NCBI RefSeq assembly: GCF_013122565.1
Contig: NZ_CP053258.1
Strand: one strand, 5' to 3'
DNA from: Escherichia coli
Lineage (GTDB): Bacteria; Pseudomonadota; Gammaproteobacteria; Enterobacterales; Enterobacteriaceae
Length of the DNA: 64,000 nucleotides
The notes under the pieces are model-generated. The model ran no database searches and was not told the DNA's origin. It saw only the letters and a program-made list of their open reading frames with translations. Position 1 is the stretch's first letter, and the number at the start of each line of letters is the position of its first letter. Shown piece by piece: positions 1 through 27,227 of the stretch. The translations under genes and the position numbers were made by a program.

Positions 1-92
1 GGCAGACAAAAGACAAAGCTACCGCACATAACCACCCACCGGGGTTACGCCATTTATTCACTGTAATTTCCTTTAAACTCAAATAATAAAAA

Positions 93-117
93 CCGGCCTG
101 GCTATTTGCCGGGCCGG
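93..117 (-). terminator. Rho-independent terminator downstream of hcp
   Basis: Minus-strand hairpin CCGGCCCGGCAAATAGCCAGGCCGG followed by TTTTTATT, immediately 3' of the hcp stop. Confidence 0.6.
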
Positions 118-128
118 AAAAGTACTGC

Positions 129-620
129 TTAAATTTCTTTATTGGCCTTGAAGTCGTAGCCTGCGGTGATGGTGCCGCCGCTGCCACCTTGCTGGTTCTG
201 CACCACGTATTCCTGCTTCACGGTGCTGAAAGAGAGTTCGACCATTTCACGGGAGGCAATCTCCCCTTCCTTGCTGCCACTGGGAGATACAACAGCCACA
301 ATAAGGTCAGTGAAGGTATATTTGAGATATTCCAGCGGATTGCCGCCTGCTTTACGCATGGTCAGCACAGCTTTCGGAATGTGTTTGCCGGAGGCGCAGT
401 ATTTGAACAGGTTAGGACTGGCACGATCGATATAGTGGTCAAAGTCCAGGTTGGTCACGGAGACTTTACCGGATCCCAGGCCACTGCCCGCGTGCATGGT
501 GGACTCCTGGTGAATATTCCAGCGCCAGCTCAGCACCTCAATTTCATTTTTATGTTTGTCATCCATTGACTCGCCGTCAATGCCGTCAATTTTCAGAAAA
601 ATGTCATAAGCCATTTTCAT
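129..620 (-). CDS. hcp: T6SS tube protein Hcp (TssD)
   Basis: 163-aa ORF, ATG start; recognisable Hcp1-family sequence (MKMAYDIFLKIDGIDGES...); sits in a T6SS gene cluster. Confidence 0.93.
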   Translation of the reverse strand: MKMAYDIFLKIDGIDGESMDDKHKNEIEVLSWRWNIHQESTMHAGSGLGSGKVSVTNLDFDHYIDRASPNLFKYCASGKHIPKAVLTMRKAGGNPLEYLKYTFTDLIVAVVSPSGSKEGEIASREMVELSFSTVKQEYVVQNQQGGSGGTITAGYDFKANKEI

Positions 621-831
621 TTCCTTATTAAGAATTACTTAAAATAATCTCTGGTTTATCTTCGCATCTGAATTCAGGTAAACCATAGCCGTACAGAACC
701 TCCTCTCCTTAATTTAAGAAGAACAGAAGGCTCTATATTTTTCAGAACTTAAGTACCAGACAGAAAATCATTCACGAAATAAATGTTTATCAATTATATA
801 TAGTTAACTGATAACATATTCTACTGGACTT

Positions 832-1287
832 TCATTCACATATTAAAGATACGGGTTTCTCCCTTGGTGGTTCATCGAAATAAAGAGTCTTACAGGAATG
901 AGTATTTACAGGTACTGGCTGAGATAACCAGACCAGTCCGTAGCTATAAATACAGGAAAACCAGTATCTGTCGCTCTCTTTCGCTGTCGCGCCTTCTGTA
1001 TTCCATATCAACCATGTTTCCTGTTTTATTTTTTTCATCTCTGGCTTCTGATCGCCAAAATTTTCCGGTTTATCCTGTGTGACACTAATATGCGTTAACC
1101 ACTGACGAGGCTCCTGCCGTGGGGAAACTCTCCATTGCGGCTGGACAAATGATTTCAGAACCGCGGTGTAAGGCTCCGTTTCAACAAAAACAGGACAAGT
1201 AACTTCCCATGCCGACACATTTTGTGCATAAAACAAGGCAACACCAGAAAGAAGCAATACAGGAAAGCGCATCATCGTACCTTCCAT
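832..1287 (-). CDS. Exported cysteine-containing protein; candidate T6SS immunity protein
   Basis: 151 aa; N-terminal Sec signal peptide (MMRFPVLLLSGVALFYAQNVSA/WE); 4 Cys in mature part; start ATG overlaps upstream stop (TAATG); located between the putative effector and hcp. Confidence 0.6.
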   Translation of the reverse strand: MEGTMMRFPVLLLSGVALFYAQNVSAWEVTCPVFVETEPYTAVLKSFVQPQWRVSPRQEPRQWLTHISVTQDKPENFGDQKPEMKKIKQETWLIWNTEGATAKESDRYWFSCIYSYGLVWLSQPVPVNTHSCKTLYFDEPPREKPVSLICE

Positions 1288-1670
1288 TATTCAATTACAT
1301 AAAATGCTTCAGCATTACTGCTGGCGCTGGGATACGAACCGTCAGAGTTTGCTCCGCCTTTCGGTCTGAGTTGATGTTTTTCGATTCTGATCTGCGTTCT
1401 CCACTGATCCATAACCCAGATCCCTCGTTTATCCTGCCCCAGATAGAATGCAGCATGATTACCTGAACTCCTGCCAGGCCATCGCCCATTAAAAAAAGTG
1501 GCAATAGCGGTACCTTTTGGAATGGTGGTGTCCCCCCACACTTTCTTACCCGCACGCCATGTTGCTGTGGAGCCAAGATGTGCATACCTTTTAACCAGAG
1601 TTACACACTCACCATCCCCCACTAATGGCTGCCCCTGTAATAAATCCACTGATTCATAAACTCGCGACAT
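1287..1670 (-). CDS. Candidate T6SS amidase effector, papain-like (CHAP/NlpC-P60-type) fold
   Basis: 127 aa, no signal peptide; GECVTLVKRY motif (Cys22), GNHAAFYLG (His72), downstream Asp88/Gln89, spacing typical of CHAP/NlpC-P60 Cys-His-polar triads; SD GAGGG upstream; coupled to the downstream exported protein. Confidence 0.6.
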   Translation of the reverse strand: MSRVYESVDLLQGQPLVGDGECVTLVKRYAHLGSTATWRAGKKVWGDTTIPKGTAIATFFNGRWPGRSSGNHAAFYLGQDKRGIWVMDQWRTQIRIEKHQLRPKGGANSDGSYPSASSNAEAFYVIE

Positions 1671-1709
1671 GTTATTGCCCTCTGATGTTACGCAGAATCC
1701 TTAGATGTA

Positions 1710-3224
1710 TCAGGCATTACCCTGTTTTACCGACGGCAGTTTTGTGACCAGACGCAGTGATCCTGTTAACCCTTCAAGCTGAAAATGCGGGCGCAGGAAG
1801 AATTTGGCATCGTAATAACCCGGATTACCTTCCACCTCTTCCACCACCACTTCGGCTGCTGCTAGTGGGCGACGAGCTTTGGTTTCCTGTGAGGAGTTCA
1901 CCGGATCGGCATCGACGTAGTTCATGATCCACTCATTGAGCCAGCGCTGCATATCTTCACGCTCTTTGAACGAGCCGATCTTGTCGCGCACGATACATTT
2001 GAGGAAGTGCGCAAACCGTGAACAGGCGAAAAGATATGGCAAACGAGCTGAGAGATTAGCGTTGGCCGTAGCGTCCGGATCGTAATATTCCTGCGGTTTT
2101 TGCAGCGACTGTGCGCCAATAAAGGCGGCATAATCGGAGTTTTTGCGGTGGATCAGCGGGATAAAACCGTTTTTGGCCAGTTCAGCTTCACGGCGATCAG
2201 AGATGGCAATTTCCGTCGGGCATTTCATATCCACGCCGCCGTCATCGGTCGGGAAGGTATGACAGGGTAGATTTTCCACCGCGCCACCAGATTCAACACC
2301 ACGGATCAACGTACACCAACCGTAATGTTTGAAAGAACGGTTGATATTTACACCCATTGCATAGGCGGCATTGCTCCAGACATATTTGCTGTGATCTGCG
2401 CCATCCGCATCTTCTTCAAAATCAAACTCATCTACAGGGTTTGTTTTCGCACCATAAGGCAAACGGGAGAGGAAACGTGGCATCGTCAGGCCAATGTAGC
2501 GAGAATCCTCACTTTTCCGCAGCGAGTTCCACGGTGCGTATTCGAGGTTTTGGGTCACAATTTTGGTCAAATCACGCGGGTTAGCCAGTTCCTGCCAGGA
2601 GTCCATCTGCAACACTGACGGAGAGGCCCCGGCAATAAACGGCGCATGGGCTGAGGCTGCTACTTTGGCAATGGAACCGAGCAGATCCACATCCGGTGGC
2701 GTGTGATCAAAATAATAATCCGCAATAATACAACCGTAAGGTTCTCCACCTAACTGTCCATATTCAGCTTCATACAGCTTTTTGAACATGGGGCTTTGAT
2801 CCCAGGCTATCCCTTTGTAACGTTTCATATTTTTCCGCAATTCATCCTTCGAAAGGTTCATAAAGCGGATTTTTAATTTTTCATCGGTTTCAGTGTTGTA
2901 AACCAAATGTTCCATCCCACGCCAGGAGGACTCCAGTTTCTGAAATTCCGGATGACTCAGGATGAGTTTGATCTGCTCGGTTAATTTGAAATCAATCTGC
3001 TCAATAATCGCAGCAATACTTTTATAAGCGTCGTCACTGACGGTGACGGTATTTGTCAGAGCCTGTTGGGCCAGCGTCTGAACTGCTGCCTCAACAGCCT
3101 TTGCTGCCTGAGGTGTCTTGGGACGGAAGGCTTTATCCAGGAGCGAATCAAATTCAGTGTCCTGATAGGCAGTGGTTTGCGCAGCAGAGAGATCGCCAGT
3201 CGCCAGAAGAGTATCGTTTACCAT
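1710..3224 (-). CDS. tssC: T6SS contractile sheath large subunit TssC (VipB/ImpC)
   Basis: 504-aa ORF with recognisable TssC sequence; immediately downstream of tssB. Confidence 0.95.
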   Translation of the reverse strand: MVNDTLLATGDLSAAQTTAYQDTEFDSLLDKAFRPKTPQAAKAVEAAVQTLAQQALTNTVTVSDDAYKSIAAIIEQIDFKLTEQIKLILSHPEFQKLESSWRGMEHLVYNTETDEKLKIRFMNLSKDELRKNMKRYKGIAWDQSPMFKKLYEAEYGQLGGEPYGCIIADYYFDHTPPDVDLLGSIAKVAASAHAPFIAGASPSVLQMDSWQELANPRDLTKIVTQNLEYAPWNSLRKSEDSRYIGLTMPRFLSRLPYGAKTNPVDEFDFEEDADGADHSKYVWSNAAYAMGVNINRSFKHYGWCTLIRGVESGGAVENLPCHTFPTDDGGVDMKCPTEIAISDRREAELAKNGFIPLIHRKNSDYAAFIGAQSLQKPQEYYDPDATANANLSARLPYLFACSRFAHFLKCIVRDKIGSFKEREDMQRWLNEWIMNYVDADPVNSSQETKARRPLAAAEVVVEEVEGNPGYYDAKFFLRPHFQLEGLTGSLRLVTKLPSVKQGNA

Positions 3225-3248
3225 GAAAGTTCCTTAATAAAATCGCAG

Positions 3249-3794
3249 TTAGTCTGCTGTTCCCGTTTCACCTGATAAGACACTTTCCTGTTGAGCGACA
3301 GGTTTTGGCGCACTGGCCAGAGCTTTCAGTAACGTAGGGTCTTGTAATAGTTTGTTGATAAGATTTTCTGCTCCCGCTTTACCATCCATATACGTTTGTA
3401 GGTTGGCAAGCTGAGTACGCGCTTCCAGCAGCTGGTTCAGGGCATCCACCTTACGGGCAATCTGCGCAGGCGAAAAATCGTCCATATTCTCCAGCGTGAT
3501 ATCGACCATTAACTGCCCTTCGCCCGTCAGCGTATTGGGGACAGCAAACGCCACGCGCGGCGCAATGGCTTTCATCCGCTCGTTGAAGTTATCGATATCA
3601 ATATCAAGGAATTTACGATCGGTGACCGGTGGCAGCTCTTCGCGAGGTTTACCGGCCAGATCGGCCAGCACCGCCATGACAAACGGCAGTTCGATTTTTT
3701 TCTCGGAGCCGTAAATCTCAACGTCATACTCAATCTGCACGCGGGGCGCACGGTTGCGGGCAATAAACTTCTGCGCGCTATTGTTGATAGCCAT
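3249..3794 (-). CDS. tssB: T6SS contractile sheath small subunit TssB (VipA/ImpB)
   Basis: 181-aa ORF with recognisable TssB sequence (…RVQIEYDVEIYGSEKKIELPFVMAVLADL…). Confidence 0.95.
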   Translation of the reverse strand: MAINNSAQKFIARNRAPRVQIEYDVEIYGSEKKIELPFVMAVLADLAGKPREELPPVTDRKFLDIDIDNFNERMKAIAPRVAFAVPNTLTGEGQLMVDITLENMDDFSPAQIARKVDALNQLLEARTQLANLQTYMDGKAGAENLINKLLQDPTLLKALASAPKPVAQQESVLSGETGTAD

Positions 3795-3855
3795 AATCCT
3801 TCATTTCCTTATCAGTCAGCCGACGACCACCTGGGGAGTGGCCCGACGGTACAGT

Positions 3856-4146
3856 TTAAAAATCATACGCAGAGAGTATTTTTATAATCTCTTTGTTTTC
3901 TTTGTACTTTTCCCGCAGCACAGGGAGTGATTTCTTCGCTGGAGGACACCAGGTATCAACCCCCTTTTCGATGTCTCTTTTATCCTTCTCTGGTAAAGAA
4001 CTGTCCCATTCACCAGCAAGATGCTGGCACATTTCCGCATTACTCAGAAAATGCTGCACATCCTGTGGTAAAGACGGTTCCCCCTGAGCACAGAAAGCGA
4101 ACATCATTAACAGGAATGTCCACAACACCGGATAACGAAATGTCAT
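3856..4146 (-). CDS. Small exported protein of unknown function (T6SS-embedded)
   Basis: 96 aa; hydrophobic signal peptide (MTFRYPVLWTFLLMMFAFCAQG/EP); charged Lys/Glu-rich mature region with 2 Cys; sits between clpV and tssB. Confidence 0.55.
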   Translation of the reverse strand: MTFRYPVLWTFLLMMFAFCAQGEPSLPQDVQHFLSNAEMCQHLAGEWDSSLPEKDKRDIEKGVDTWCPPAKKSLPVLREKYKENKEIIKILSAYDF

Positions 4147-4148
4147 AC

Positions 4149-4352
4149 TTAATGTCCATCAATTGACCAGTGCATGAGATATGCTCTAGCGGGAGGGCGA
4201 TATGTTGCAGAGATACTGACCCTTGCACGCGCATTACCAAGCGCGCGCAAAAAATTATCTACCGATACACGAAAAGTCCCCTGCAAATCATTGGTGGAAG
4301 AACTTCCAGGAAAGCGACTGACCCACAGCGCGCCACTTAATTCTTTTTCCAT
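4149..4352 (-). CDS. Hypothetical small protein (67 aa), uncertain
   Basis: ORF fills the gap between clpV and the 96-aa ORF; GGAG about 9 nt upstream of ATG; stop 2 nt before the next ATG; contains rare Arg codons, no recognisable motif. Confidence 0.25.
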   Translation of the reverse strand: MEKELSGALWVSRFPGSSSTNDLQGTFRVSVDNFLRALGNARARVSISATYRPPARAYLMHWSIDGH

Positions 4353-4364
4353 AAGGATGCTCCA

Positions 4365-6998
4365 TTAATCCGTTTCAAAAATAATCTGTTCATCCTCATC
4401 AACACGAATGCGGATTTGCGTGATGGCCGTTTTCTCTGTCATCGCCTGCAACCAGTAACGGGACAGTTGTGGGAGGATATGTTGTTCGATATAGCCGATG
4501 AGCAAACGAGCGCCGGTTTCGTGCATCGGGCAGCGCGACACAATATGCGTAATCAATTCATCGCCATACACCAGTGAAACGCCATGCTGCTCCGCCATCC
4601 GATCCATCAATCTGCCAAGATGCAGGCGGGCAATAACACCACGCGCGGTCTCATCCAGCGGTAAATAAGGAATAACCGTCACACGCCCCAGGAAAGCCGC
4701 CGGGAAGTGTTTACGTAACTCCGGCATTAACGCCTCTTTTAATCCTGCCGAATCAGGCATCAGCGCCGGATCCTCACAGAGCTGGCTGATAAGTTCCGCT
4801 CCCGCGTTAGTAGTCAACAACAGCGTGGTATTTTTGAAATCGATGTGGACACCTTCGCCATCTTCCATCGCCCCCTTATCAAACACCTGGAAGAACAGCT
4901 CGTGGACGTCGTGATGGGCTTTTTCAATTTCATCCAGCAATACCACGCTCCAGGGATGGCGGCGTACCGCTTCTGTCAACACGCCGCCTTCGCCATAACC
5001 CACGTAGCCGGGCGGTGCGCCTTTCAGCGTGGAAACGGTGTGGGACTCCTGAAACTCGCTCATGTTGATGGTGATCAGGTTCTGCTCACCGCCATAGATA
5101 GCCTCTGCCAGCGCCAGAGCGGTCTCAGTCTTGCCAACACCGGACGGCCCGGCCAGCAAAAAGACGCCCACAGGCTTACGCGGGTCACCTAAACCCGCCC
5201 GCGCGGTCTGGATACGCTCGCCAATCTGCGCCAGCGCGTCCCTCTGCCCGGTAACACGCTGCGCCAGACGGGCGGGCAGTTCCAGGATCTGACTGGCCTC
5301 ATCTTTCACCATGCGTCCGGCGGGAATACCGGTCCAGTCGGAGACAATCTCTGCCACCACGGTTGCACTGACTTCCGGGTACACGACGGGGTTTTCACCC
5401 TGCCAACCTCTTAATGCCGTTTCTGCCTGTTGTAGAGTGATTTCGTCGCGCTCGCCGGGCTCTGCGCCGCGTTGCTCGTGTAAACTGCGAACCAACTCCA
5501 GTTCCTGCTGCCACCGCGCTTCGGTGTCAGAAAGATCGGCATTCAGCGATATAATCCGCGCCGCCAGTACATCGCCCCGCTCCGAGCGGATACCCATTTT
5601 TTCCTGCTTTAATAACAACTCCTGCTCCAGTTCGGCAGCGTTGAGCTGCTGGCGCAGATACTGGACTCTCGCAGGCGGGGTATGCAGCGACAGCGCTACA
5701 CGGGCCGCCGCCGTATCCAGCAGGCTGATGGCCTTATCCGGTAGTTGCCGGGACGGAATGTACCGGTGAGAAAGCTGTACCGCGGCGCGCACGGCCTCAT
5801 CAAGGATCAGGACGTCATGGTGTTTTTCAAGCGTGGTGACTAACCCGCGTACCATCTCAACAGCCGCAACCTCTTCTGGCTCAGCAACCTGCAATACCTG
5901 AAAACGCCGGGTCAGCGCCGGATCCTTTTCGATATGGCGTTTGTACTCGCTCCAGGTAGTTGCGCCGATGGTGCGCAGGGTTCCACGCGCCAGCGCCGGT
6001 TTCAGCAGGTTGGCAGCATCCCCCGTACCGGATGTACCACCAGCGCCCACCAGCGTGTGAACTTCATCAACAAAAAGGATCACCGGCTGCGGCGAGCGCG
6101 CGGCCTCTTCCAACAACGCTTTCAGGCGGGATTCAAATTCACCCTTCATGGACGCCCCTGCCAGCAGCGCTCCAACATCCAGTGACAGCAACCGCACGTT
6201 ACGCAGTGAAGGCGGTACTTCCCCCCCGGCAATCGCCAGCGCGAATCCTTCCACCACTGCCGTTTTCCCGACTCCCGCCTCGCCGGTCAGCAGCGGGTTG
6301 TTCTGGCGACGGCGCAGCAGAATATCCGTCATAGTACGGATCTCGTGTTCGCGACCGGTGACCGGATCGATATTGCCTTCACGGGCCAGCGCAGTCATGT
6401 CCTGGCAGTATTTCGCCAGCGCGGATTTGCTTCCGGTTGATTCGCCGGCAAAGACCTGGCTAGCTTCCCCCGGTACTGCAGAATTTAAATCCGAGCCGTC
6501 ATAAGGCATTTCTGTTAATTCAGGAGATGAAGTGATTAAAGACGGAAGAATATCTAATAGTTCATCTACCGGTAGCTCTGCCAATGGCGCACAAATATTT
6601 TTTAACACCCGACACAATTCTGGCGTGGTTAACCAGGCAAGTAATAACCATCCACTACGAATTTTTTGATCGCCAAAGCGGATACTTGCCAACATCCAGG
6701 CTTTTTCAACAGAAAGATCGATATGATGGGAAAAATCGTTAATTACACTCGCTCCGGCAGGCAATATATTCAATTGCTGAATTAACGCCTTCTCAACATC
6801 AGCAGATGTTATTTGATAATGTCGAAGCACATTGTGAATGTCATTCTCTGGTTGTTGTATTAACTGATGCAACCAATGTGTCAGTTCGACATAAGGATTA
6901 GCGCGTAATTTACAGAACGTTGTCGCAGATTCCAAAGATCTAAACAAAGATTTGGTTAGCTTTCCATATAGTGCACTGCGCGAAACAGGAGTGTCCAT
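4365..6998 (-). CDS. clpV: T6SS AAA+ ATPase ClpV (TssH)
   Basis: 877 aa; two Walker A motifs (GEAGVGKT, GPSGVGKT); ClpB-like architecture without a long middle domain; T6SS context. Confidence 0.95.
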   Translation of the reverse strand: MDTPVSRSALYGKLTKSLFRSLESATTFCKLRANPYVELTHWLHQLIQQPENDIHNVLRHYQITSADVEKALIQQLNILPAGASVINDFSHHIDLSVEKAWMLASIRFGDQKIRSGWLLLAWLTTPELCRVLKNICAPLAELPVDELLDILPSLITSSPELTEMPYDGSDLNSAVPGEASQVFAGESTGSKSALAKYCQDMTALAREGNIDPVTGREHEIRTMTDILLRRRQNNPLLTGEAGVGKTAVVEGFALAIAGGEVPPSLRNVRLLSLDVGALLAGASMKGEFESRLKALLEEAARSPQPVILFVDEVHTLVGAGGTSGTGDAANLLKPALARGTLRTIGATTWSEYKRHIEKDPALTRRFQVLQVAEPEEVAAVEMVRGLVTTLEKHHDVLILDEAVRAAVQLSHRYIPSRQLPDKAISLLDTAAARVALSLHTPPARVQYLRQQLNAAELEQELLLKQEKMGIRSERGDVLAARIISLNADLSDTEARWQQELELVRSLHEQRGAEPGERDEITLQQAETALRGWQGENPVVYPEVSATVVAEIVSDWTGIPAGRMVKDEASQILELPARLAQRVTGQRDALAQIGERIQTARAGLGDPRKPVGVFLLAGPSGVGKTETALALAEAIYGGEQNLITINMSEFQESHTVSTLKGAPPGYVGYGEGGVLTEAVRRHPWSVVLLDEIEKAHHDVHELFFQVFDKGAMEDGEGVHIDFKNTTLLLTTNAGAELISQLCEDPALMPDSAGLKEALMPELRKHFPAAFLGRVTVIPYLPLDETARGVIARLHLGRLMDRMAEQHGVSLVYGDELITHIVSRCPMHETGARLLIGYIEQHILPQLSRYWLQAMTEKTAITQIRIRVDEDEQIIFETD

Positions 6999-7330
6999 CT
7001 GTTACACCTGATGATGTAAGAACATATAAATGATACATAAACATAACTGTACCGATTAAAACTTCTAATTAATAGAATTATCAAAAAGGCAGAATGAAAC
7101 AATGATGCATATCACAGAACCCAATGTAATATAGCAGGTAGTATCGTTTTTATGGTGATATTCAATAGCGTAAGCCAATTTCATACAAGCCATGAATATA
7201 TTAAATTGAAAATCGCCAATATATATTTCTGTAAAAACTTATATTGATAAAGCAAATTGATCAGCATTGCTTATCTAAAAATTTAGAAAACTTATTCTTT
7301 TGAAAGAAACACTCTACACAGTGATACACA
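6999..7330. promoter_or_regulatory. AT-rich divergent control region between clpV operon and the plus-strand T6SS operon
   Basis: 332 bp noncoding, visibly AT-rich relative to the flanking genes; contains a GATC-centred palindrome at 7246-7275. Confidence 0.5.
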
Positions 7331-8245
7331 ATGAAACAAAATATTACGTGGGGACTCCAAAAAAAACAGGCGCACGGGATCGCCGATAACACAATTTACG
7401 CGACTGAAGGAACACAAATTATCTTTACCGTTACCTCTCCCTGGATTCCTGTTTTTGAGGTGAATGATGATGTAAAGATTGCCCTCAGTCTGACCCGCCA
7501 CGAAGAAGCATGGTGGATTATTAATCAGTCTACCGAATATTGCTGTACGGTAAACGACCAGATTGTGGAACCTCATCACCGTATGCGTCTGAATGAAGGC
7601 GATCAGATAGAATGGGGGTTATCTTCATGGTGCCTTGTGCATGGCACCCCATCATCTCCGGACATGAGCGCAGTAAAAACAATATCGCAGACTGCCATCA
7701 CGTCGGAAACAATAACCGAATATCTGGATCTGGATTGGTTCAGGCAGCAGCATCTGACATCACAAAATCCATTCGATATCATTCCTGTTCATGGAGCCTC
7801 CTCCACCGGAGAAGATGCGGAAAAAGAAAATGCCCTGACCCGACTTTATCAGGAATACCGCGAGGCGTTGTTATCTCCCGAAGAAGATCTTCATCGCCAT
7901 GCTGATCCTTTTCCCTTTAACGAAGAGCCCTCCTCGCAGGATCTGGATTCATTGCGTGACCTGGTCACCGAAGCCGATACATTGCAGGATATGGTCACTG
8001 GTGGGTTAAGCATTGACGCTATTCTCAATGTACTGGATGCCACCGGCGAAGATGAAACTATCTGGCCTGTCGAAAAGACTCCCCCTGATATCCTGCATTT
8101 ACTTTCCCCGGAATACGCCCCGGAAACAGCGCATAACACCGTACTGCCAGATCTGACACGCAAAGAGCACCGCATTATCGGCATTGACAGCCATTACCGG
8201 ATAAACCCGGCACAACACGGAGATATCTCTCATGACAAACAATAA
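7331..8245 (+). CDS. T6SS-associated protein of unknown function; possible degenerate FHA-like N-terminal domain
   Basis: 304 aa, ATG start; N-terminal region has FHA-reminiscent elements (SLTRHEEAWWIINQS…RLNEGDQIEWG); C-terminal half acidic/Pro-rich and low complexity; first gene of the operon containing tagJ-tssEFG-tssA. Confidence 0.65.
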   Translation: MKQNITWGLQKKQAHGIADNTIYATEGTQIIFTVTSPWIPVFEVNDDVKIALSLTRHEEAWWIINQSTEYCCTVNDQIVEPHHRMRLNEGDQIEWGLSSWCLVHGTPSSPDMSAVKTISQTAITSETITEYLDLDWFRQQHLTSQNPFDIIPVHGASSTGEDAEKENALTRLYQEYREALLSPEEDLHRHADPFPFNEEPSSQDLDSLRDLVTEADTLQDMVTGGLSIDAILNVLDATGEDETIWPVEKTPPDILHLLSPEYAPETAHNTVLPDLTRKEHRIIGIDSHYRINPAQHGDISHDKQ

Positions 8246-9062
8246 CGTGCTACCGGCTACCCTGTCGGCGCTGCTGCGGGATTATTCCGTGGCGGAGGGC
8301 ATTCAGATGGCAGAGCAGCAGGTCAGGATGCACCCAGCGCAGGCCTCCCGCCGCCACAGCCTGTTTCAGTTACTGTGCGTGGCAGGCGACTGGTCGCGGG
8401 CGCTGCAACAGATCCAGCTGTGCGACCGGATGGACGCAAATTATACCCGCGAAGCGCAGGTATTTGGCGAGCTGATCCGCTGTGAGATATACCGCCACGC
8501 CTGCTTTCAGGGGGAACAGCGGCCCGGTTTTATTCTCCCGCCGCCCGCCTGGATGGAGGATCTACTGGCTGCTCTCGCCTGTAACGCCCGTAGTGAAGCG
8601 CAGGAAGCTGATGTCCACCGCAGCCGCGCGCTTGAGGCCATAACAGACACTTCTGGGCAGTGGAATGGCGGCGCGTTTGACTGGATTAGCGACAGCGACT
8701 CCCGTACCGGTCCGGTACTCGAACTGATCGCAGGCGGGGTGTATATCTGGCTGCCATTCTCACAAATTCGCTCACTGAAATCGCCGCAGCCTGCGCATCT
8801 GACCGATTTGCTCTGGAAACCCGTCAACGTCACCCTGCACAACGGTGACACGCACAGTGCCTGGCTGTTTCCCCGCTACAGCGGCTCTGAAAAGGCCGCC
8901 GACTCCCTGCGTCTGTGCCGGGAAACGGTCTGGCAGGACGGGCCGGGAGAGACGCTGGTACAGGCGCTGGGTCAGAGGGTGTGGCTCACCAGCCAGGGCG
9001 ATATCAGCCTGCTGGATTTGTCCACCTGTACCTTTAATACCTCCGAAGGAAGCGACGCGTGA
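8232..9062 (+). CDS. tagJ: T6SS accessory protein TagJ (ImpE/SciE family)
   Basis: 276 aa; N-terminal region with the ImpE-family motif LFQLLCVAGDWSRALQQ. Confidence 0.85.
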   Translation: MTNNNVLPATLSALLRDYSVAEGIQMAEQQVRMHPAQASRRHSLFQLLCVAGDWSRALQQIQLCDRMDANYTREAQVFGELIRCEIYRHACFQGEQRPGFILPPPAWMEDLLAALACNARSEAQEADVHRSRALEAITDTSGQWNGGAFDWISDSDSRTGPVLELIAGGVYIWLPFSQIRSLKSPQPAHLTDLLWKPVNVTLHNGDTHSAWLFPRYSGSEKAADSLRLCRETVWQDGPGETLVQALGQRVWLTSQGDISLLDLSTCTFNTSEGSDA

Positions 9063-9553
9063 GCACCTCCCGCCAGCGTCCGGGCAGCCACCTGCTGCCC
9101 ACACTGTTTGACCGTCTGTGCGATGACGCCCCAGACCAGAAGCGCGACCACGATATCAGCGTCAGCCCGGTTCAGCTTAAGGAGATCATCCGCCGGGACT
9201 TGTCGTTTCTGCTCAACACCGTCAGCCATGAAGATGATATTGATGCCGCACGTTACCCACACGCGGCAGCATCTGTACTGAACTACGGCCTGCCGCCACT
9301 GGCGGGCAGCTTTCTGTATGAACACAAGTGGGACGATATCCGCAGGGCCATTTTGCGTACCATCACCCGGTTTGAACCCCGGCTGAAAGCGTCCACCCTG
9401 CAAATCATCCCACTTCAGGATGAGCGCCGCCAGAGTGGCCATAACACATTACAGTTTGAAATTCGCGGCGAGATCCTCACGCAGCCTTACCCGACGGCAT
9501 TCCGGGTACGCAGCGCGCTGGATATGGAACAAAGCCGCATTACGTTTTTTTAA
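9059..9553 (+). CDS. tssE: T6SS baseplate protein TssE (gp25-like)
   Basis: 164 aa; GTG start overlapping tagJ stop (GTGA); gp25/TssE-like sequence; precedes tssF-tssG. Confidence 0.85.
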   Translation: MSTSRQRPGSHLLPTLFDRLCDDAPDQKRDHDISVSPVQLKEIIRRDLSFLLNTVSHEDDIDAARYPHAAASVLNYGLPPLAGSFLYEHKWDDIRRAILRTITRFEPRLKASTLQIIPLQDERRQSGHNTLQFEIRGEILTQPYPTAFRVRSALDMEQSRITFF

Positions 9554-9568
9554 TTCAGAGAGAAACCG

Positions 9569-11452
9569 ATGGATCCACGGCTACTGGAATACTACAACCG
9601 CGAACTGAGCTATCTGCGGGAAACGGGAGCCGAATTTGCCGCCCGTCATCCCAAAGTCGCCGCCCGGCTGGGCATGCAGGGAACGGATATTGCCGATCCG
9701 TATGTGGAGCGGATGGTCGAAGCCTTCAGCTTCCTGACCGCCCGCACGCAGCTAAAAATTGACGCTGAATTCCCTCGTTTCACCCAGCGCCTGCTGGAAG
9801 TGGTCAGCCCCAATTACGTCACACCCACGCCCTCAATGAGCGTGGCGCAGTTGCATCCCGATACGGAAGAAGGCGATCTGGCAAAAGGATTTACCGTCCC
9901 GCGCGACACGGCCTTTTTCTCCGCCATTCCGGAAGGCGAAAGCACTGCCTGCCAGTTTCGCAGCAGCCAGGATGTAACGCTGTGGCCGCTCGCCATCGAA
10001 GAGGCGCGACTGACCGCCGCGCCGCCGGATATGCCTGCCCTGCACCGCTACCTGCCGGCCAACATTCACGTCGCCGGGGCGCTGCGTATTACCCTGCGCA
10101 CCTTTGGTGAACTAACGTTCAGTCAGCTTGCCGGACTGGACAGGCTGCCGTTTTATCTCTGCGGCGAGGAGCGTACGGCCTCACACCTGTTCGAACTTCT
10201 ACATACCAGCGCCATCGCGACCCTGGCTGGCATTCCGGGACATTTTGACGGCGCGTTGGATGTGAATCTGCAACAGCCCGTTATGTACGAAGGCCTGGAG
10301 CCGGATCAGGGGCTGCTGCCGCTGGCGTGGAACGTGTTTCACGGTCATAACCTGCTGCATGAATATTTTGCCTGTCCGGAACGCTTCTATTTTTTCACCC
10401 CGACAGGCCTGTCTGCCGGATTACAGAAAATTGACGGTGGCGTGGCGGAGATTGTTATCCTGCTGAACCGCCTGCCGCCGGACTGGCTGATCCACCAGAC
10501 AAATACGGCACAGTTCAGCCTGTTCTGTACCCCGGTTATCAACCTGTTTCCCCGCGTCACCGCCCGGATCGATGTCACGCACAGCACGACGGAACAGCAT
10601 CTGGTGGTGGACAGAACCCATCCGCTGGATTATGAGGTGTTCTCGGTCCAGGAAGTGGAAGGGCTGGAAACCGACACCACACGGAAGATGGCCTTTCGCC
10701 CGCTCTACCACACCCGCAATAACGATGAAGGCAATCACGGGCGTTATTTTTCCCTGCGCCGGGAGCCGCGCCGCTTATCAGAAAACGCCCGCCGTTACGG
10801 TACCCGTACTCCCTATACGGGATCAGAAGTGTTCCTGTCGCTGGTTGACCAGTATGAAGCGCCGTACCCGGAAAATCTGCGCCACATCACCATCACGGCC
10901 ATGATCACTAACCGCGATCTGCCCTGTCTTATTGCCCGCAATGGCCGGGACGATCTAACCGTGGATGCGGCCATCCCGGTGGCGGGCGTAGGGCTTATCC
11001 GCCCGCCACGCTCGCCGCAGCCCCCGCTGGCTGAACGTGAGATGGCATGGCGGTTGATCCGCCAGTTATCTTTTAATTATCTGCCGCTGGCCGATCTGGA
11101 TCACCGTACCGGCGGCCAGGCGTTGCGAGATCTGCTGAACCTGTTTATTCCTGCTCATGACAGTCCGCAATCGCGCCAGGTGCGCAGCCTGATTGGTTGT
11201 AAAACGACCCCGGTCACCCGCCGTCTGCCCGGTTCCGGACTACTGGTCTATGGGCGTGGCGTCAGTTGTGAACTGACGGTGGATGAAGAAGGTTTTTCCG
11301 GCATCAGTCCGTATCTGTTCGGCCTGGTGCTGGAACACTATATCGCCCGCCATGTTTCCATTAATACCTTCTCGCAGATGACGCTGCACAGCATGCAGCG
11401 TGGCAAAATTATGACCTGGCCTGTCAGGGCGGGACAGCGGGGAAGCGTATGA
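9569..11452 (+). CDS. tssF: T6SS baseplate protein TssF (ImpG)
   Basis: 627 aa; recognisable TssF sequence; stop overlaps tssG start (ATGA). Confidence 0.92.
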   Translation: MDPRLLEYYNRELSYLRETGAEFAARHPKVAARLGMQGTDIADPYVERMVEAFSFLTARTQLKIDAEFPRFTQRLLEVVSPNYVTPTPSMSVAQLHPDTEEGDLAKGFTVPRDTAFFSAIPEGESTACQFRSSQDVTLWPLAIEEARLTAAPPDMPALHRYLPANIHVAGALRITLRTFGELTFSQLAGLDRLPFYLCGEERTASHLFELLHTSAIATLAGIPGHFDGALDVNLQQPVMYEGLEPDQGLLPLAWNVFHGHNLLHEYFACPERFYFFTPTGLSAGLQKIDGGVAEIVILLNRLPPDWLIHQTNTAQFSLFCTPVINLFPRVTARIDVTHSTTEQHLVVDRTHPLDYEVFSVQEVEGLETDTTRKMAFRPLYHTRNNDEGNHGRYFSLRREPRRLSENARRYGTRTPYTGSEVFLSLVDQYEAPYPENLRHITITAMITNRDLPCLIARNGRDDLTVDAAIPVAGVGLIRPPRSPQPPLAEREMAWRLIRQLSFNYLPLADLDHRTGGQALRDLLNLFIPAHDSPQSRQVRSLIGCKTTPVTRRLPGSGLLVYGRGVSCELTVDEEGFSGISPYLFGLVLEHYIARHVSINTFSQMTLHSMQRGKIMTWPVRAGQRGSV

Positions 11453-12444
11453 GCAACGATTTCACTCAGGCGCAGGAAACCCCCTGGCGTTACGGTTTTC
11501 TGAACCTGATGCGCCGCGTTGATGTGCAGTTGTGTACCGTTCCGGCGGACAACACCTGGCAACCACGGATGGAAAAATTTCGCCTCGGACAAACGCCCAC
11601 GCTGACCTTTGCGCCACGGGAAATCGCCAGTGTGAGCTGGCAGGAAGGACGCCTGCATATCAGCCTGTACAGTCTCGGGCTGTGGGGGCCGAACGGTCCG
11701 TTGCCGCTGCACTACACCGAACTGGCGCGCAACCGGACCGAAAGCCGACGCGATCCGACGCTGACCCGTTTTTCCGATCTTTTTCATCACCGCTGGCTGA
11801 CGCAGTTTTACCAGGCATGGCGCAGCGCCCAGTCAGCCGGGGGCGGTCTGGATAAACCGCAGCATGACCGCTTTGCCTTTTATATCGCCAGCCTCAGCGG
11901 GCAGGATTTAAGGGAGAGCGCCGACAGCCCGTTGCCGGATCACGTTCGCCTGGCGGCATCGGCGCATCTGGTGCGTGAGTCCCGCAATCCGGACGGTCTG
12001 GCCGCCACGCTGGCGCACTATTTTGGCGTACCTTTCCGGATACAGGAGTATGTCCTGCACTGGATAGCCGTGGCGGAGGATGAGATCACCCGGCTGGGGA
12101 TGCCTGCCCCCTCTTCCGTTATTGGCAATGGTGCACTCATCGGCCAGGCCGTGCCGGACATGCAGTATAAGTTCCGGCTGGTTATCGGCCCGCTGACGCT
12201 GGAGGATTACCGACGTTTTCTGCCTGGCGGCAATAACCTGCCCGTCCTGACAGAACTGGTCCGCGCCTTTAGTGGTTTTGAATACTGCTGGGAAATTGAG
12301 CTACAACTAAAGCCCCACGCCGCCCCTCCGGCTGTTACCGGTGGTCCGTACCAACTGGGTTGGACCGCATGGGCGGGTAAAGCCATGCACGACAACCCGG
12401 TGACGGGCATGATTTTCGAACCAGAACACTACCTGGCGCACTGA
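11449..12444 (+). CDS. tssG: T6SS baseplate protein TssG (ImpH)
   Basis: 331 aa; recognisable TssG sequence; translationally coupled to tssF. Confidence 0.9.
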   Translation: MSNDFTQAQETPWRYGFLNLMRRVDVQLCTVPADNTWQPRMEKFRLGQTPTLTFAPREIASVSWQEGRLHISLYSLGLWGPNGPLPLHYTELARNRTESRRDPTLTRFSDLFHHRWLTQFYQAWRSAQSAGGGLDKPQHDRFAFYIASLSGQDLRESADSPLPDHVRLAASAHLVRESRNPDGLAATLAHYFGVPFRIQEYVLHWIAVAEDEITRLGMPAPSSVIGNGALIGQAVPDMQYKFRLVIGPLTLEDYRRFLPGGNNLPVLTELVRAFSGFEYCWEIELQLKPHAAPPAVTGGPYQLGWTAWAGKAMHDNPVTGMIFEPEHYLAH

Positions 12445-12454
12445 GGATAATTAA

Positions 12455-13501
12455 ATGGAAATATTCCTGTCTGACCCAATTTCGGCGGAATGTCCCTGCG
12501 GCCCGGATCTGGAGTACGATCCGGAATACCTGCTACTGTTCACTCGCGCCGCACCGCGTGAAGAAGCGCAATACGGCGATTTTGTCAGTACGCCGGAAAC
12601 CATTAACTGGGCGGAGCTTGAGCGGGACGCCCATCGTCTGCTGATGCGCAGCAAAGATATCCGCATTCTGGTTGTCCTGCTGCGCTGCCGTATCCAGCAG
12701 GCCGGCGCACAGGGACTGGCAGACGCGCTCGCGTTGCTGGAAACGTTGTGCGCCACGTACCCGGACGCCATCCATCCGCAACTGCTCGCGACTGAAGATA
12801 TCACCGCCGAAGAGGCGGCAGTGGCACGTAGTAACGCGCTGGCGGCGTTGCTGGACCACGAAGGAGTAATGGCGGATATTCGTGGCATTACACTGTCAAA
12901 TAATGTCGCCATGTGCCTTCAGGTTCGCGATGTGGAGCGTTCGCTGTCAGCATCACGCCCGGCGGATGCGCTGGCACCGGAATCAGTACGCCAGCAACTG
13001 GCCGACCTGGAAGCGCGCGGCACATTGCCGCTGGATGCCTTTCGCCAGGCCGCAGAGACCACTGAACGGCTGCAACGCCATGCGCGTGAAACGCTGAATG
13101 ACCAGGCACCGGACTTCTCCCGTCTGACGCAACTGCTGGCCCTGTTACCGGGAGCAGTGCAGAGCACCACGCCGGAGATCCTGCCACAACCACAGGCTGA
13201 ACAGCCGGAGAATGCCACCATCGATAATACTGAAAAGATGCAGGCAGAGCAGATTGCGCTAGCGGTGCATATCGCGGAGGAAATATCACCGATATCCGGC
13301 GCAGAACCTCGGCAGATCCGCGACCGGAACGATGCGCTGGAACGCCTGCGTGTCATCCGTCGCTGGTTTGAGCACAGCGAACCGAGCAGCCCGACCATTC
13401 CTTTGCTGCTCCAGGCAGAACGCCTGGTCGGAAAACGCTTCTCTGAGGTAATAAATGAAATTCCAGTAGAACTGCTGGAGAAATGGGATGCGCTGGAGTA
13501 A
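12455..13501 (+). CDS. tssA: T6SS protein TssA (ImpA N-terminal domain family, short form)
   Basis: 348 aa; N-terminal ImpA_N signature (DPISAECPCGPDLEYDPEY); SD GAGG upstream. Confidence 0.85.
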   Translation: MEIFLSDPISAECPCGPDLEYDPEYLLLFTRAAPREEAQYGDFVSTPETINWAELERDAHRLLMRSKDIRILVVLLRCRIQQAGAQGLADALALLETLCATYPDAIHPQLLATEDITAEEAAVARSNALAALLDHEGVMADIRGITLSNNVAMCLQVRDVERSLSASRPADALAPESVRQQLADLEARGTLPLDAFRQAAETTERLQRHARETLNDQAPDFSRLTQLLALLPGAVQSTTPEILPQPQAEQPENATIDNTEKMQAEQIALAVHIAEEISPISGAEPRQIRDRNDALERLRVIRRWFEHSEPSSPTIPLLLQAERLVGKRFSEVINEIPVELLEKWDALE

Positions 13502-13630: not shown

Positions 13631-13707
13631 TGGCGGAACGGACGGGACTCGAACCCGCGACCCCCTGCGTGACAGGCAGGTATTCTAACCGACTGAACTA
13701 CCGCTCC
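13631..13707 (-). tRNA. aspV: tRNA-Asp (GTC)
   Basis: Reverse complement matches the E. coli tRNA-Asp sequence including encoded CCA. Confidence 0.97.
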
Positions 13708-21854: not shown

Positions 21855-21931
21855 TGGCGGAACGGACGGGACTCGAACCCGCGACCCCCTGCGTGACAGG
21901 CAGGTATTCTAACCGACTGAACTACCGCTCC
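21855..21931 (-). tRNA. aspU: tRNA-Asp (GTC), distal tRNA of rrnH operon
   Basis: Identical 77-nt tRNA-Asp sequence as at 13631-13707; downstream of 5S rRNA. Confidence 0.97.
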
Positions 21932-21974
21932 ACCGAATTCTTTTACAACCACCGGTTTTATGACCGGCTTACTG

Positions 21975-22122
21975 CTTAATTTGATGCCTGGCAGTTTATG
22001 AATCACTTCGTGATTCACCCTTCGGGCCGTTGCTTCGCAACGTTCAAAAGCTTTCGCTTTTGTCCTACTCTCTTATCGAGTAGTGAACTGCCTTAAAGGT
22101 CAGTGCCATTCTTCGTAATTTG
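21975..22122. repeat. Extra segment between 5S rRNA and aspU carrying a duplicated 5S 3'-terminal sequence and two perfect hairpins
   Basis: CTTAATTTGATGCCTGGCAGTT at 21975-21996 recurs with the same core at 22115-22135 (5S 3' end); palindromes TGAATCACTTCGTGATTCA (21999-22017) and CGTTGCTTCGCAACG (22028-22042). Confidence 0.5.
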
Positions 22123-22242
22123 ATGCCTGGCAGTTCCCTACTCTCGCATGGGGAGACCCCACACTACCATCGGCGCTACGGCGTTTCACTTCTGAGTTCG
22201 GCATGGGGTCAGGTGGGACCACCGCGCTAAGGCCGCCAGGCA
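22123..22242 (-). rRNA. rrfH: 5S ribosomal RNA
   Basis: 120-nt reverse-complement match to E. coli 5S rRNA. Confidence 0.97.
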
Positions 22243-22335
22243 AATTCTGTTTCATCAGACCGCTTCTGCGTTCTGATTTAATCTGTATCAGGCTGAAAAT
22301 CTTCTCTCAATCCGCCAAAACATCTTCGGCGTTGT

Positions 22336-25239
<2,904 letters not shown>

Positions 25240-25422
25240 TCACAACCCGAAGATGTTTCTTTCGACTCATCATCGTGTTGCGAAAATTTGAGAGACTCAC
25301 GAACAACTCTCGTTGTTCAGTGTTTCAATTTTCAGCTTGATCCAGATTTTTAAAGAGCAAAACTTCGCAGTGAACCTTTGCAGGTACACTCTGAAGTATT
25401 TTTTATTTAATCACTACAGAGA

Positions 25423-25498
25423 TGGTGGAGCTATGCGGGATCGAACCGCAGACCTCCTGCGTGCAAAGCAGGCGCTCTCCCAGCTGAGCTATAGCCCC
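25423..25498 (-). tRNA. alaV: tRNA-Ala (TGC), rrn spacer tRNA
   Basis: Reverse complement matches E. coli tRNA-Ala(UGC). Confidence 0.97.
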
Positions 25499-25540
25499 AT
25501 AACATGTAGTTAAAACCTCTTCAAATTTGCGGTGCAAATT

Positions 25541-25617
<77 letters not shown>

Positions 25618-25685
25618 GTAGAGGTTTTACTGCTCATTTTCATCAGACAATCTGTGTGAGCACTACAAAGAACGCTTCTTTAAGG

Positions 25686-27227
<1,542 letters not shown>

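Follow-up and report, generated by a model that had tools for sequence, protein, structure and literature searches.

The 64,000-nucleotide stretch of Escherichia coli DNA analysed here (hereafter the window; RefSeq assembly GCF_013122565.1, contig NZ_CP053258.1) carries near its start two adjacent minus-strand genes, situated between tssC and hcp of a type VI secretion system (T6SS) cluster. We consider it very likely that these genes form a Tae2/Tai2 cassette, filling the variable slot that follows tssC in an E. coli T6SS orthologous to that of Salmonella pathogenicity island 6 (SPI-6), next to a tRNA-Asp gene. Judged by its sequence matches, the 127-residue product of the first gene is a member of the Tae2 family, papain-like Cys-His peptidoglycan amidase effectors of the T6SS, and by the same kind of evidence the 151-residue product of the second is its Tai2-family periplasmic immunity partner. 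The pair thus represents no new kind of system: its family is known and named, its slot is known, and it is the allele that is new and uncharacterised, in a host that is unusual. An original prediction, made by reading the window without database searches, had proposed a candidate amidase effector and a cognate immunity protein at this position, and both open reading frames (ORFs) are confirmed between tssC and hcp from the minus-strand ORFs and their family matches. Moreover, both lie far beyond chance, because each matches a curated family model above its cut-off. The cassette and its immediate surroundings comprise the following features (positions are those of the window).

1710-3224, minus strand: tssC, large sheath subunit (TIGR03355, 715.6 bits), 39 nt upstream of tae2
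1678-1682, minus strand: GAGGG, Shine-Dalgarno-like, 7 nt upstream of the tae2 ATG, by sequence reading
1287-1670 including the stop codon, minus strand: tae2, 127 aa, BPSL0067 family amidase effector (NF033857, PDB 6WIN)
1605-1607, minus strand: codon of Cys22, predicted catalytic nucleophile, invariant in 19 homologues including Salmonella Typhi Tae2
1455-1457, minus strand: codon of His72 in the GNHAAF motif, predicted catalytic base, invariant in the alignment
1407-1409, minus strand: codon of Asp88 in the VMDQW motif, putative third triad member, from its invariance in the alignment
832-1287, minus strand: tai2 as its longest ORF, 151 aa, STY0301 family immunity protein (NF042415)
1280-1285, minus strand: GGAAGG, Shine-Dalgarno-like, 4 nt upstream of tai2 Met5, by sequence reading; it overlaps the upstream ATG of TAATG
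832-1275, minus strand: probable true tai2 coding sequence, 147 aa from Met5 (ATG at 1273-1275), from the Shine-Dalgarno element, the PGAP annotation and homologues
1210-1275, minus strand: predicted Tai2 Sec signal peptide, MMRFPVLLLSGVALFYAQNVSA followed by WEV, without a lipobox, from hydropathy and the invariant Ala at -1
129-620, minus strand: hcp (tssD), tube protein (TIGR03344, 59.6 bits), 211 nt downstream of tai2
790-1708, no strand: variable effector-immunity cassette, approximate limits from a three-way alignment, lying between the tssC stop codon and the conserved sequence that precedes hcp

Family assignment of the effector

The 127-residue protein matches the NCBIfam model NF033857 (BPSL0067_fam) at 161.6 bits against a cut-off of 27, with residues 14-127 spanning positions 1-115 of the 115 in the model, and the name "BPSL0067 family", raised in the original prediction, proves to be the right one. 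A sequence search of the PDB returned 6WIN, the Tae2 of Salmonella Typhi (S. Typhi), with E=1.5e-33 and 48% identity over residues 4-127, as the sole relevant entry, while a profile built from 19 family members recovered the same structure at 1.3e-56 and no further amidase chain. No Tae1, Tae3 or Tae4 chain was found at E<=10 in the single-sequence PDB search, and neither these nor any CHAP chain were found with the 19-member profile, even at E<=10. Pfam gave no match to the protein even at E<=10, and so none to Tae4 (PF14113), CHAP or NLPC_P60; the family is not represented by any Pfam model. The earlier view that the effector differs from Tae4 is therefore upheld by both the PDB and Pfam results, whereas the accompanying idea that the family might be distinct or little characterised is not, given that Tae2 is a named family with a solved structure and a bond specificity that has already been reported (PMC3695027, PMC10469887). 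Similarly, the likeness to CHAP/NlpC-P60 enzymes that had been proposed stands at the level of fold only, as reported for 6WIN, whose papain-like amidase fold most resembles that of LysK, the endolysin of phage K (10.1101/2020.04.10.036376), and does not extend to a match with the Pfam CHAP or NLPC_P60 families. Tae2 homologues also form a family of their own in a survey of papain-like enzymes (PMC10318531).

Cys22, His72, Asp88 and Gln89 are invariant in an alignment of 19 sequences that includes S. Typhi Tae2, and Cys22 is the sole cysteine of the protein. The first three had been singled out beforehand as catalytic residues, a choice that their invariance bears out, with Asp88 as the putative third member of the triad. 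The effector has a mass of 14 kDa and a pI of 9.6; its N-terminus contains no hydrophobic segment and hence no signal peptide, as had been claimed, and a domain scan (NCBIfam, Pfam) finds nothing beyond the Tae2 family. Relative to 6WIN, two short insertions are missing near residues 93 and 102. Taken as a whole, the NF033857 and 6WIN matches bear out the idea of a predicted papain-like peptidoglycan amidase effector of the T6SS. The search against the Tae families with profile models and sequences, which had been put forward as a check on the pair, was run, and placed the effector in Tae2 and its 151-residue partner in the STY0301 family (Tai2).

The immunity protein and its translation start

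The 151-residue ORF matches the NCBIfam model NF042415 (STY0301_fam, Tai2) at 52.7 bits against a cut-off of 22, with residues 6-150 spanning positions 1-137 of the 137 in the model. Its four cysteines (31, 112, 132 and 150) are all invariant in the Tai2 family alignment, as is Ala26, which directly precedes the predicted point of signal-peptide cleavage (position -1). The N-terminus, as read from sequence features, consists of the n-region MMR, a hydrophobic core and the cleavage motif VSA followed by W, and hydropathy peaks at 2.3 over residues 8-20. The mature protein is acidic (pI 5.7), in contrast with the basic effector. The family match, the Sec signal features and the invariant cysteines agree with the immunity partner that had been anticipated, bearing a probable signal peptide and four cysteines.

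Relatives of this protein numbered 18 in an exhaustive search of 1.84 billion representative proteins, and it has no Pfam match. PDB searches with Tai2, both as a single sequence and as a profile, returned nothing, and no Tai2 structure has been solved. An AlphaFold2 model reached a predicted local distance difference test score (pLDDT) of 84.7 and is all-beta, with nine strands; Tai2 consequently has a confident model without a solved structural relative. In the AlphaFold database the model finds STY0301-family proteins of Salmonella and Citrobacter with template-modelling (TM) scores of 0.83-0.85. The model also aligns structurally with many DUF3757-annotated proteins, while Pfam misses the sequence, which suggests, at the level of predicted structures, a remote relationship between the STY0301 family and DUF3757.

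The two genes had been described as translationally coupled through a TAATG overlap. A minus-strand TAATG does occur at 1285-1289, but coupling through the overlap is doubtful, because the likely start of tai2 is Met5. This start is preferred because GGAAGG is the only Shine-Dalgarno-like element placed to serve tai2, PGAP/RefSeq annotates the E. coli orthologue in strain LHM10-1 as 147 aa, and Tai2 homologues begin at the Met5 position in the family alignment. The genes would then probably be separated by an 11-nt gap and not joined by a 1-nt overlap, and are tightly linked either way. For comparison, the immunity gene begins 12 nt past the effector stop in a second E. coli allele (see below) and in Pseudenterobacter, and a 4-nt overlap of the two genes is frequent in other genera.

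Position of the cassette and its frequency in E. coli

The T6SS island occupies window positions 1-13501 and ends at a tRNA-Asp gene (13631-13707), beside dnaQ and rnhA. The backbone between 13.5 and 21.5 kb of the window is ~99% identical to E. coli chromosomes and present in 5425 of the 5426 complete E. coli genomes that served as our frequency sample. Within the island, TssC and Hcp are 94% and 96% identical, respectively, to their counterparts at an SPI-6 locus from a Salmonella of unassigned serovar (L058), and gene order is shared with SPI-6 on both strands: tssF, tssE, an ImpE-like gene and tagK on one, and clpV, tssB, tssC, a variable slot, hcp, tssJ, tssK and tssL on the other. In SPI-6, the slot downstream of tssC is known as variable region 1 and holds either Tae2/Tai2 or Tae4/Tai4 (PMC10469887, PMC13224477, PMC12994826), and it is the E. 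coli equivalent of this region that the pair occupies. A three-way alignment of the window, an E. coli genome with an empty slot and one with a second tae2-tai2 allele delimits the cassette to ~790-1708, its right end falling directly after the tssC stop codon. The GC content of tae2 and tai2 is 44-48%, against 52% for the whole window, and the 211-nt spacer between tai2 and hcp (621-831) has a GC content of only 30%. A promoter and terminator scan of positions 1-4400 yielded fewer promoter-like sites than shuffled sequence; a single sigma-70-like match, running from 846 to 818 on the minus strand, extends over the 3' end of tai2, yet the count falls below the shuffled expectation and so provides evidence neither for nor against an internal promoter in this AT-rich spacer.

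This type of cluster is present in 118 of the 5426 genomes. The window's tae2-tai2 allele occurs in 4 of the 5426, at ~99% DNA identity, and the second allele in 11 of the 5426, its proteins being 53% (effector) and 47% (immunity) identical to those of the window. Neither allele was detected in the remaining 103 of the 118 cluster-carrying genomes, and in at least one cluster-carrying genome (L002) the slot is empty. Public databases already list both proteins under family names, on hundreds of contigs, and RefSeq applies the names BPSL0067 and STY0301 family protein to E. coli proteins that are the same or almost the same. There is no need to flag the pair as a candidate new effector family. 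In reviews of E. coli T6SSs, amidase effectors belong to the clusters of Salmonella and Enterobacter and not to E. coli T6SS1-3, and the organisation of the Salmonella T6SS is described as distinct from that of T6SS1-3 (PMC6730261). Nonetheless, ~2% of complete E. coli genomes contain an SPI-6 orthologue, a minority of them with Tae2/Tai2, and this E. coli cluster may fall outside the T6SS1-3 scheme. Two divergent alleles and an empty state at one site constitute a simple natural system for studying allele-specific immunity.

Pairing and T6SS linkage in other bacteria

The GNHAAF motif is conserved enough to act as a search pattern for loci, and a pattern search over one genome per species, set up from eight closer sequences, found 50 Tae2 loci, mostly in Oxalobacteraceae and Burkholderiaceae, with some in Enterobacter, Pseudomonas and Bowmanella and in one Holophagaceae genome. 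A Tai2-family ORF lies directly downstream on the same strand in 40 of these 50 loci of other species, with gaps from -53 to +24 nt, and the Tai2 assignment by NCBIfam holds for the partners in Pseudenterobacter, Massilia and the second E. coli allele. Pseudenterobacter timonensis, Enterobacter sp. and Variovorax also have the arrangement tssC-tae2-tai2-hcp. In loci from Massilia, Duganella and Pseudoduganella, tae2 is directly preceded by hcp without being part of a T6SS cluster. Clustering of the upstream ORFs across the 50 loci revealed no recurrent neighbour other than tssC and hcp, which appear in a few loci.

Comparison with known systems

The closest characterised counterpart is the S. 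Typhi pair, which shares with the window pair the two families, the Cys-His-Asp residues and the position directly after tssC. The window effector differs from S. Typhi Tae2 (6WIN) by its 48% identity and two short deletions, and the immunity protein is only ~21% identical to S. Typhi Tai2 in a structural alignment, compared with 46-54% for the Tai2 relatives of Citrobacter farmeri and Salmonella Inverness; furthermore, the host is here E. coli and the allele rare. The second E. coli allele (strain 06-00048; WP_042102253.1, WP_071906047.1) agrees with the window in slot, flanks and both families, and differs in sequence to the extent given above. Tae4/Tai4 of S. Typhimurium and Enterobacter cloacae likewise consist of a small T6SS amidase of papain-like type and an immunity protein of the periplasm, and reside in the same SPI-6 region, yet Tae4 has no detectable sequence similarity to the window effector, and Tai4 belongs to PF16695, unlike Tai2. 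Tse1 (Tae1) and Tsi1 of Pseudomonas aeruginosa are again a ~15 kDa Cys-His amidase without a signal peptide and a periplasmic immunity protein, and Tse1 is the model for cargo of the Hcp lumen (PMC12302283); however, Tse1 belongs to another family, has another bond specificity, and possesses six cysteines with a functional disulfide, in contrast to the single cysteine of the window effector. Finally, tick Dae2, a domesticated Tae2, has a catalytic domain homologous to that of Tae2 (10.1101/2020.04.10.036376), but is a secreted immune factor of a eukaryote with a broadened substrate range, acting outside the T6SS and without a Tai2 partner.

At two Salmonella enterica SPI-6 loci (L058 and L059, ~7830-8447) we observe a full-length tai2 (148 aa, from a cluster of 1066 member sequences), with tae2 reduced to a 52-aa C-terminal remnant or not called. 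The order downstream is hcp, tae4, tai4, hcp, leaving an orphan tai2 beside an active Tae4 cassette.

Proposed mechanism and delivery

By analogy with characterised family members, the 14-kDa effector would be made in the cytoplasm, where it would have no substrate and would leave the producer unharmed. The T6SS would then fire Tae2 into the periplasm of a neighbouring Gram-negative cell, where its papain-like active site would cut the meso-diaminopimelic acid (mDAP)-D-Ala cross-links of peptidoglycan, resulting in a weakened wall and lysis, as known from the family (PMC3695027, PMC10469887, 10.1101/2020.04.10.036376); the same studies describe the Salmonella Tae2 as acting solely on Gram-negative sacculi. 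Tai2 would be exported by Sec, probably with two disulfides, and would bind and block incoming Tae2, allowing sister cells to survive. The weakest step of this scheme is the passage of Tae2 inside the Hcp ring, for which the original prediction had argued. Delivery through the Hcp lumen is plausible given the small size of the effector, the absence of any PAAR, VgrG or adaptor domain, the adjacent hcp gene and the precedent of Tse1, which is cargo of Hcp1 (PMC12302283).

Alternative interpretations

Several points weigh against our interpretation. The AlphaFold2 model of the effector, built from a single sequence, had a pLDDT of 34.5 and is unusable, and for this reason the predicted fold is taken from homology to 6WIN. 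The identity to the crystallised Tae2 is only 48% and the two short insertions are missing, and consequently the bond specificity could differ. Only part of the T6SS cluster lies inside the window, and in the closest complete genome that carries the allele (LHM10-1; L001, 1-1184), tssL, a gene outside the window, is a pseudogene with an internal stop, such that the apparatus may not fire in every carrier. Additionally, most betaproteobacterial tae2-tai2 pairs have no T6SS gene, hcp included, within 5 kb, and the activity, secretion and immunity ascribed to the window's allele are those expected from family homology.

A new amidase effector family, CHAP/NlpC-P60-like and outside Tae1-4, might be suspected from the lack of any Pfam match for either protein and from a Cys-His spacing of 50 residues, unlike the value given for Tae4 in the original prediction, but this is hardly credible in view of full-length matches to the curated Tae2 model and to the Tae2 crystal structure, and of the BPSL0067/STY0301 names that E. 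coli versions already carry in RefSeq; the NF033857, 6WIN and PDB profile results exclude it. Some T6SSs require a peptidoglycan-cleaving enzyme for their assembly, and the pair sits among structural genes of the apparatus, which raises the alternative of a self-acting enzyme that opens the producer's own peptidoglycan, with the second protein as its regulator. An enzyme without a signal peptide cannot, however, reach its own periplasm, the slot is empty in the cluster of one E. coli genome (L002) and filled by either allele in only 15 of the 118 cluster-carrying genomes, and the two Salmonella loci retain tai2 with a decayed tae2, as is typical for a toxin and its immunity gene but not for an assembly factor. 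On these three grounds we reject self-remodelling, which we regard as very improbable.

The two other alternatives accept a Tae2/Tai2 pair and concern how, or whether, it is used at present. Instead of entering the Hcp lumen, the effector may be loaded via VgrG, PAAR or an adaptor, a route that we hold to be possible, if rather unlikely. Its appeal lies in the pairs outside Enterobacteriaceae, most of which have neither hcp within 5 kb nor a recurrent upstream neighbour, and in the literature we searched, where direct data on binding between Tae2 and Hcp were not found; indeed, because most betaproteobacterial pairs lack hcp within 5 kb, the Hcp-cargo route is not a family-wide genetic signature. 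Set against this, the Tae2 family match is the only one in the effector, leaving it with no PAAR, VgrG-binding or adaptor-type domain, hcp is adjacent both here and in the Massilia, Duganella and Pseudoduganella loci, and a small amidase, Tse1 (Tae1), is established as Hcp1 cargo (PMC12302283). A further alternative, which we think improbable, is that the genes are intact but the secretion system inactive, the pair being a silent relic with no present function beyond immunity. This would accord with the internal stop in tssL of the closest complete genome, with the reduction of a neighbouring effector-like gene in the window to a deletion remnant, and with the reported H-NS silencing in vitro of T6SS clusters at the same tRNA site in E. 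coli, albeit of a different cluster type (PMC5363993), yet every T6SS gene visible in the window is an intact ORF, and neither the catalytic residues nor the signal peptide is disrupted.

Neighbouring genes and other features of the window

The run of T6SS genes fills the first 7 kb of the window on the minus strand, according to the ORF list and an NCBIfam scan, and upstream of tssC it contains the following genes.

4365-6998, minus strand: tssH/clpV, part of the T6SS run
4149-4352, minus strand: small ORF of 67 aa, directly 3' of clpV
3856-4146, minus strand: small ORF of 96 aa, after the 67-aa ORF
3249-3794, minus strand: tssB, part of the T6SS run

The 67-aa ORF is a deletion remnant: relative to E. 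coli 06-00048, ~361 bp that separate two copies of CACTGGTCA are missing. In that strain the gene is longer (~188 aa, "peptidoglycan-binding domain-containing protein") and itself frameshifted; it contains the motif SSNHTRGTAIDM, and an M15 D-Ala-D-Ala peptidase is only weakly hinted at (E about 0.05). The 96-aa ORF has a signal-peptide-like N-terminus and four cysteines. From these sequence features, the two ORFs may be a second, decayed effector and its retained immunity gene.

On the opposite strand, a 276-aa ORF (8232-9062, plus) between tagK and tssE has no NCBIfam match, and the Salmonella gene in the equivalent position carries the Pfam domain ImpE (PF07024), which suggests a TagJ-like accessory protein. 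A 94-nt "tRNA-His" called by ARAGORN inside the tssF coding region (11235-11328, plus) received no confirmation from Rfam and is probably a false positive. Beyond the island, the window includes ordinary E. coli backbone with a complete rRNA operon on the minus strand (21855-27227; 16S, tRNA-Ile, tRNA-Ala, 23S, 5S and tRNA-Asp), a StyR-44 match (25247-25355) within the spacer that precedes the 23S gene, and, likewise in ordinary backbone near the rpsB end of the window, a t44 RNA at 60841-60927.

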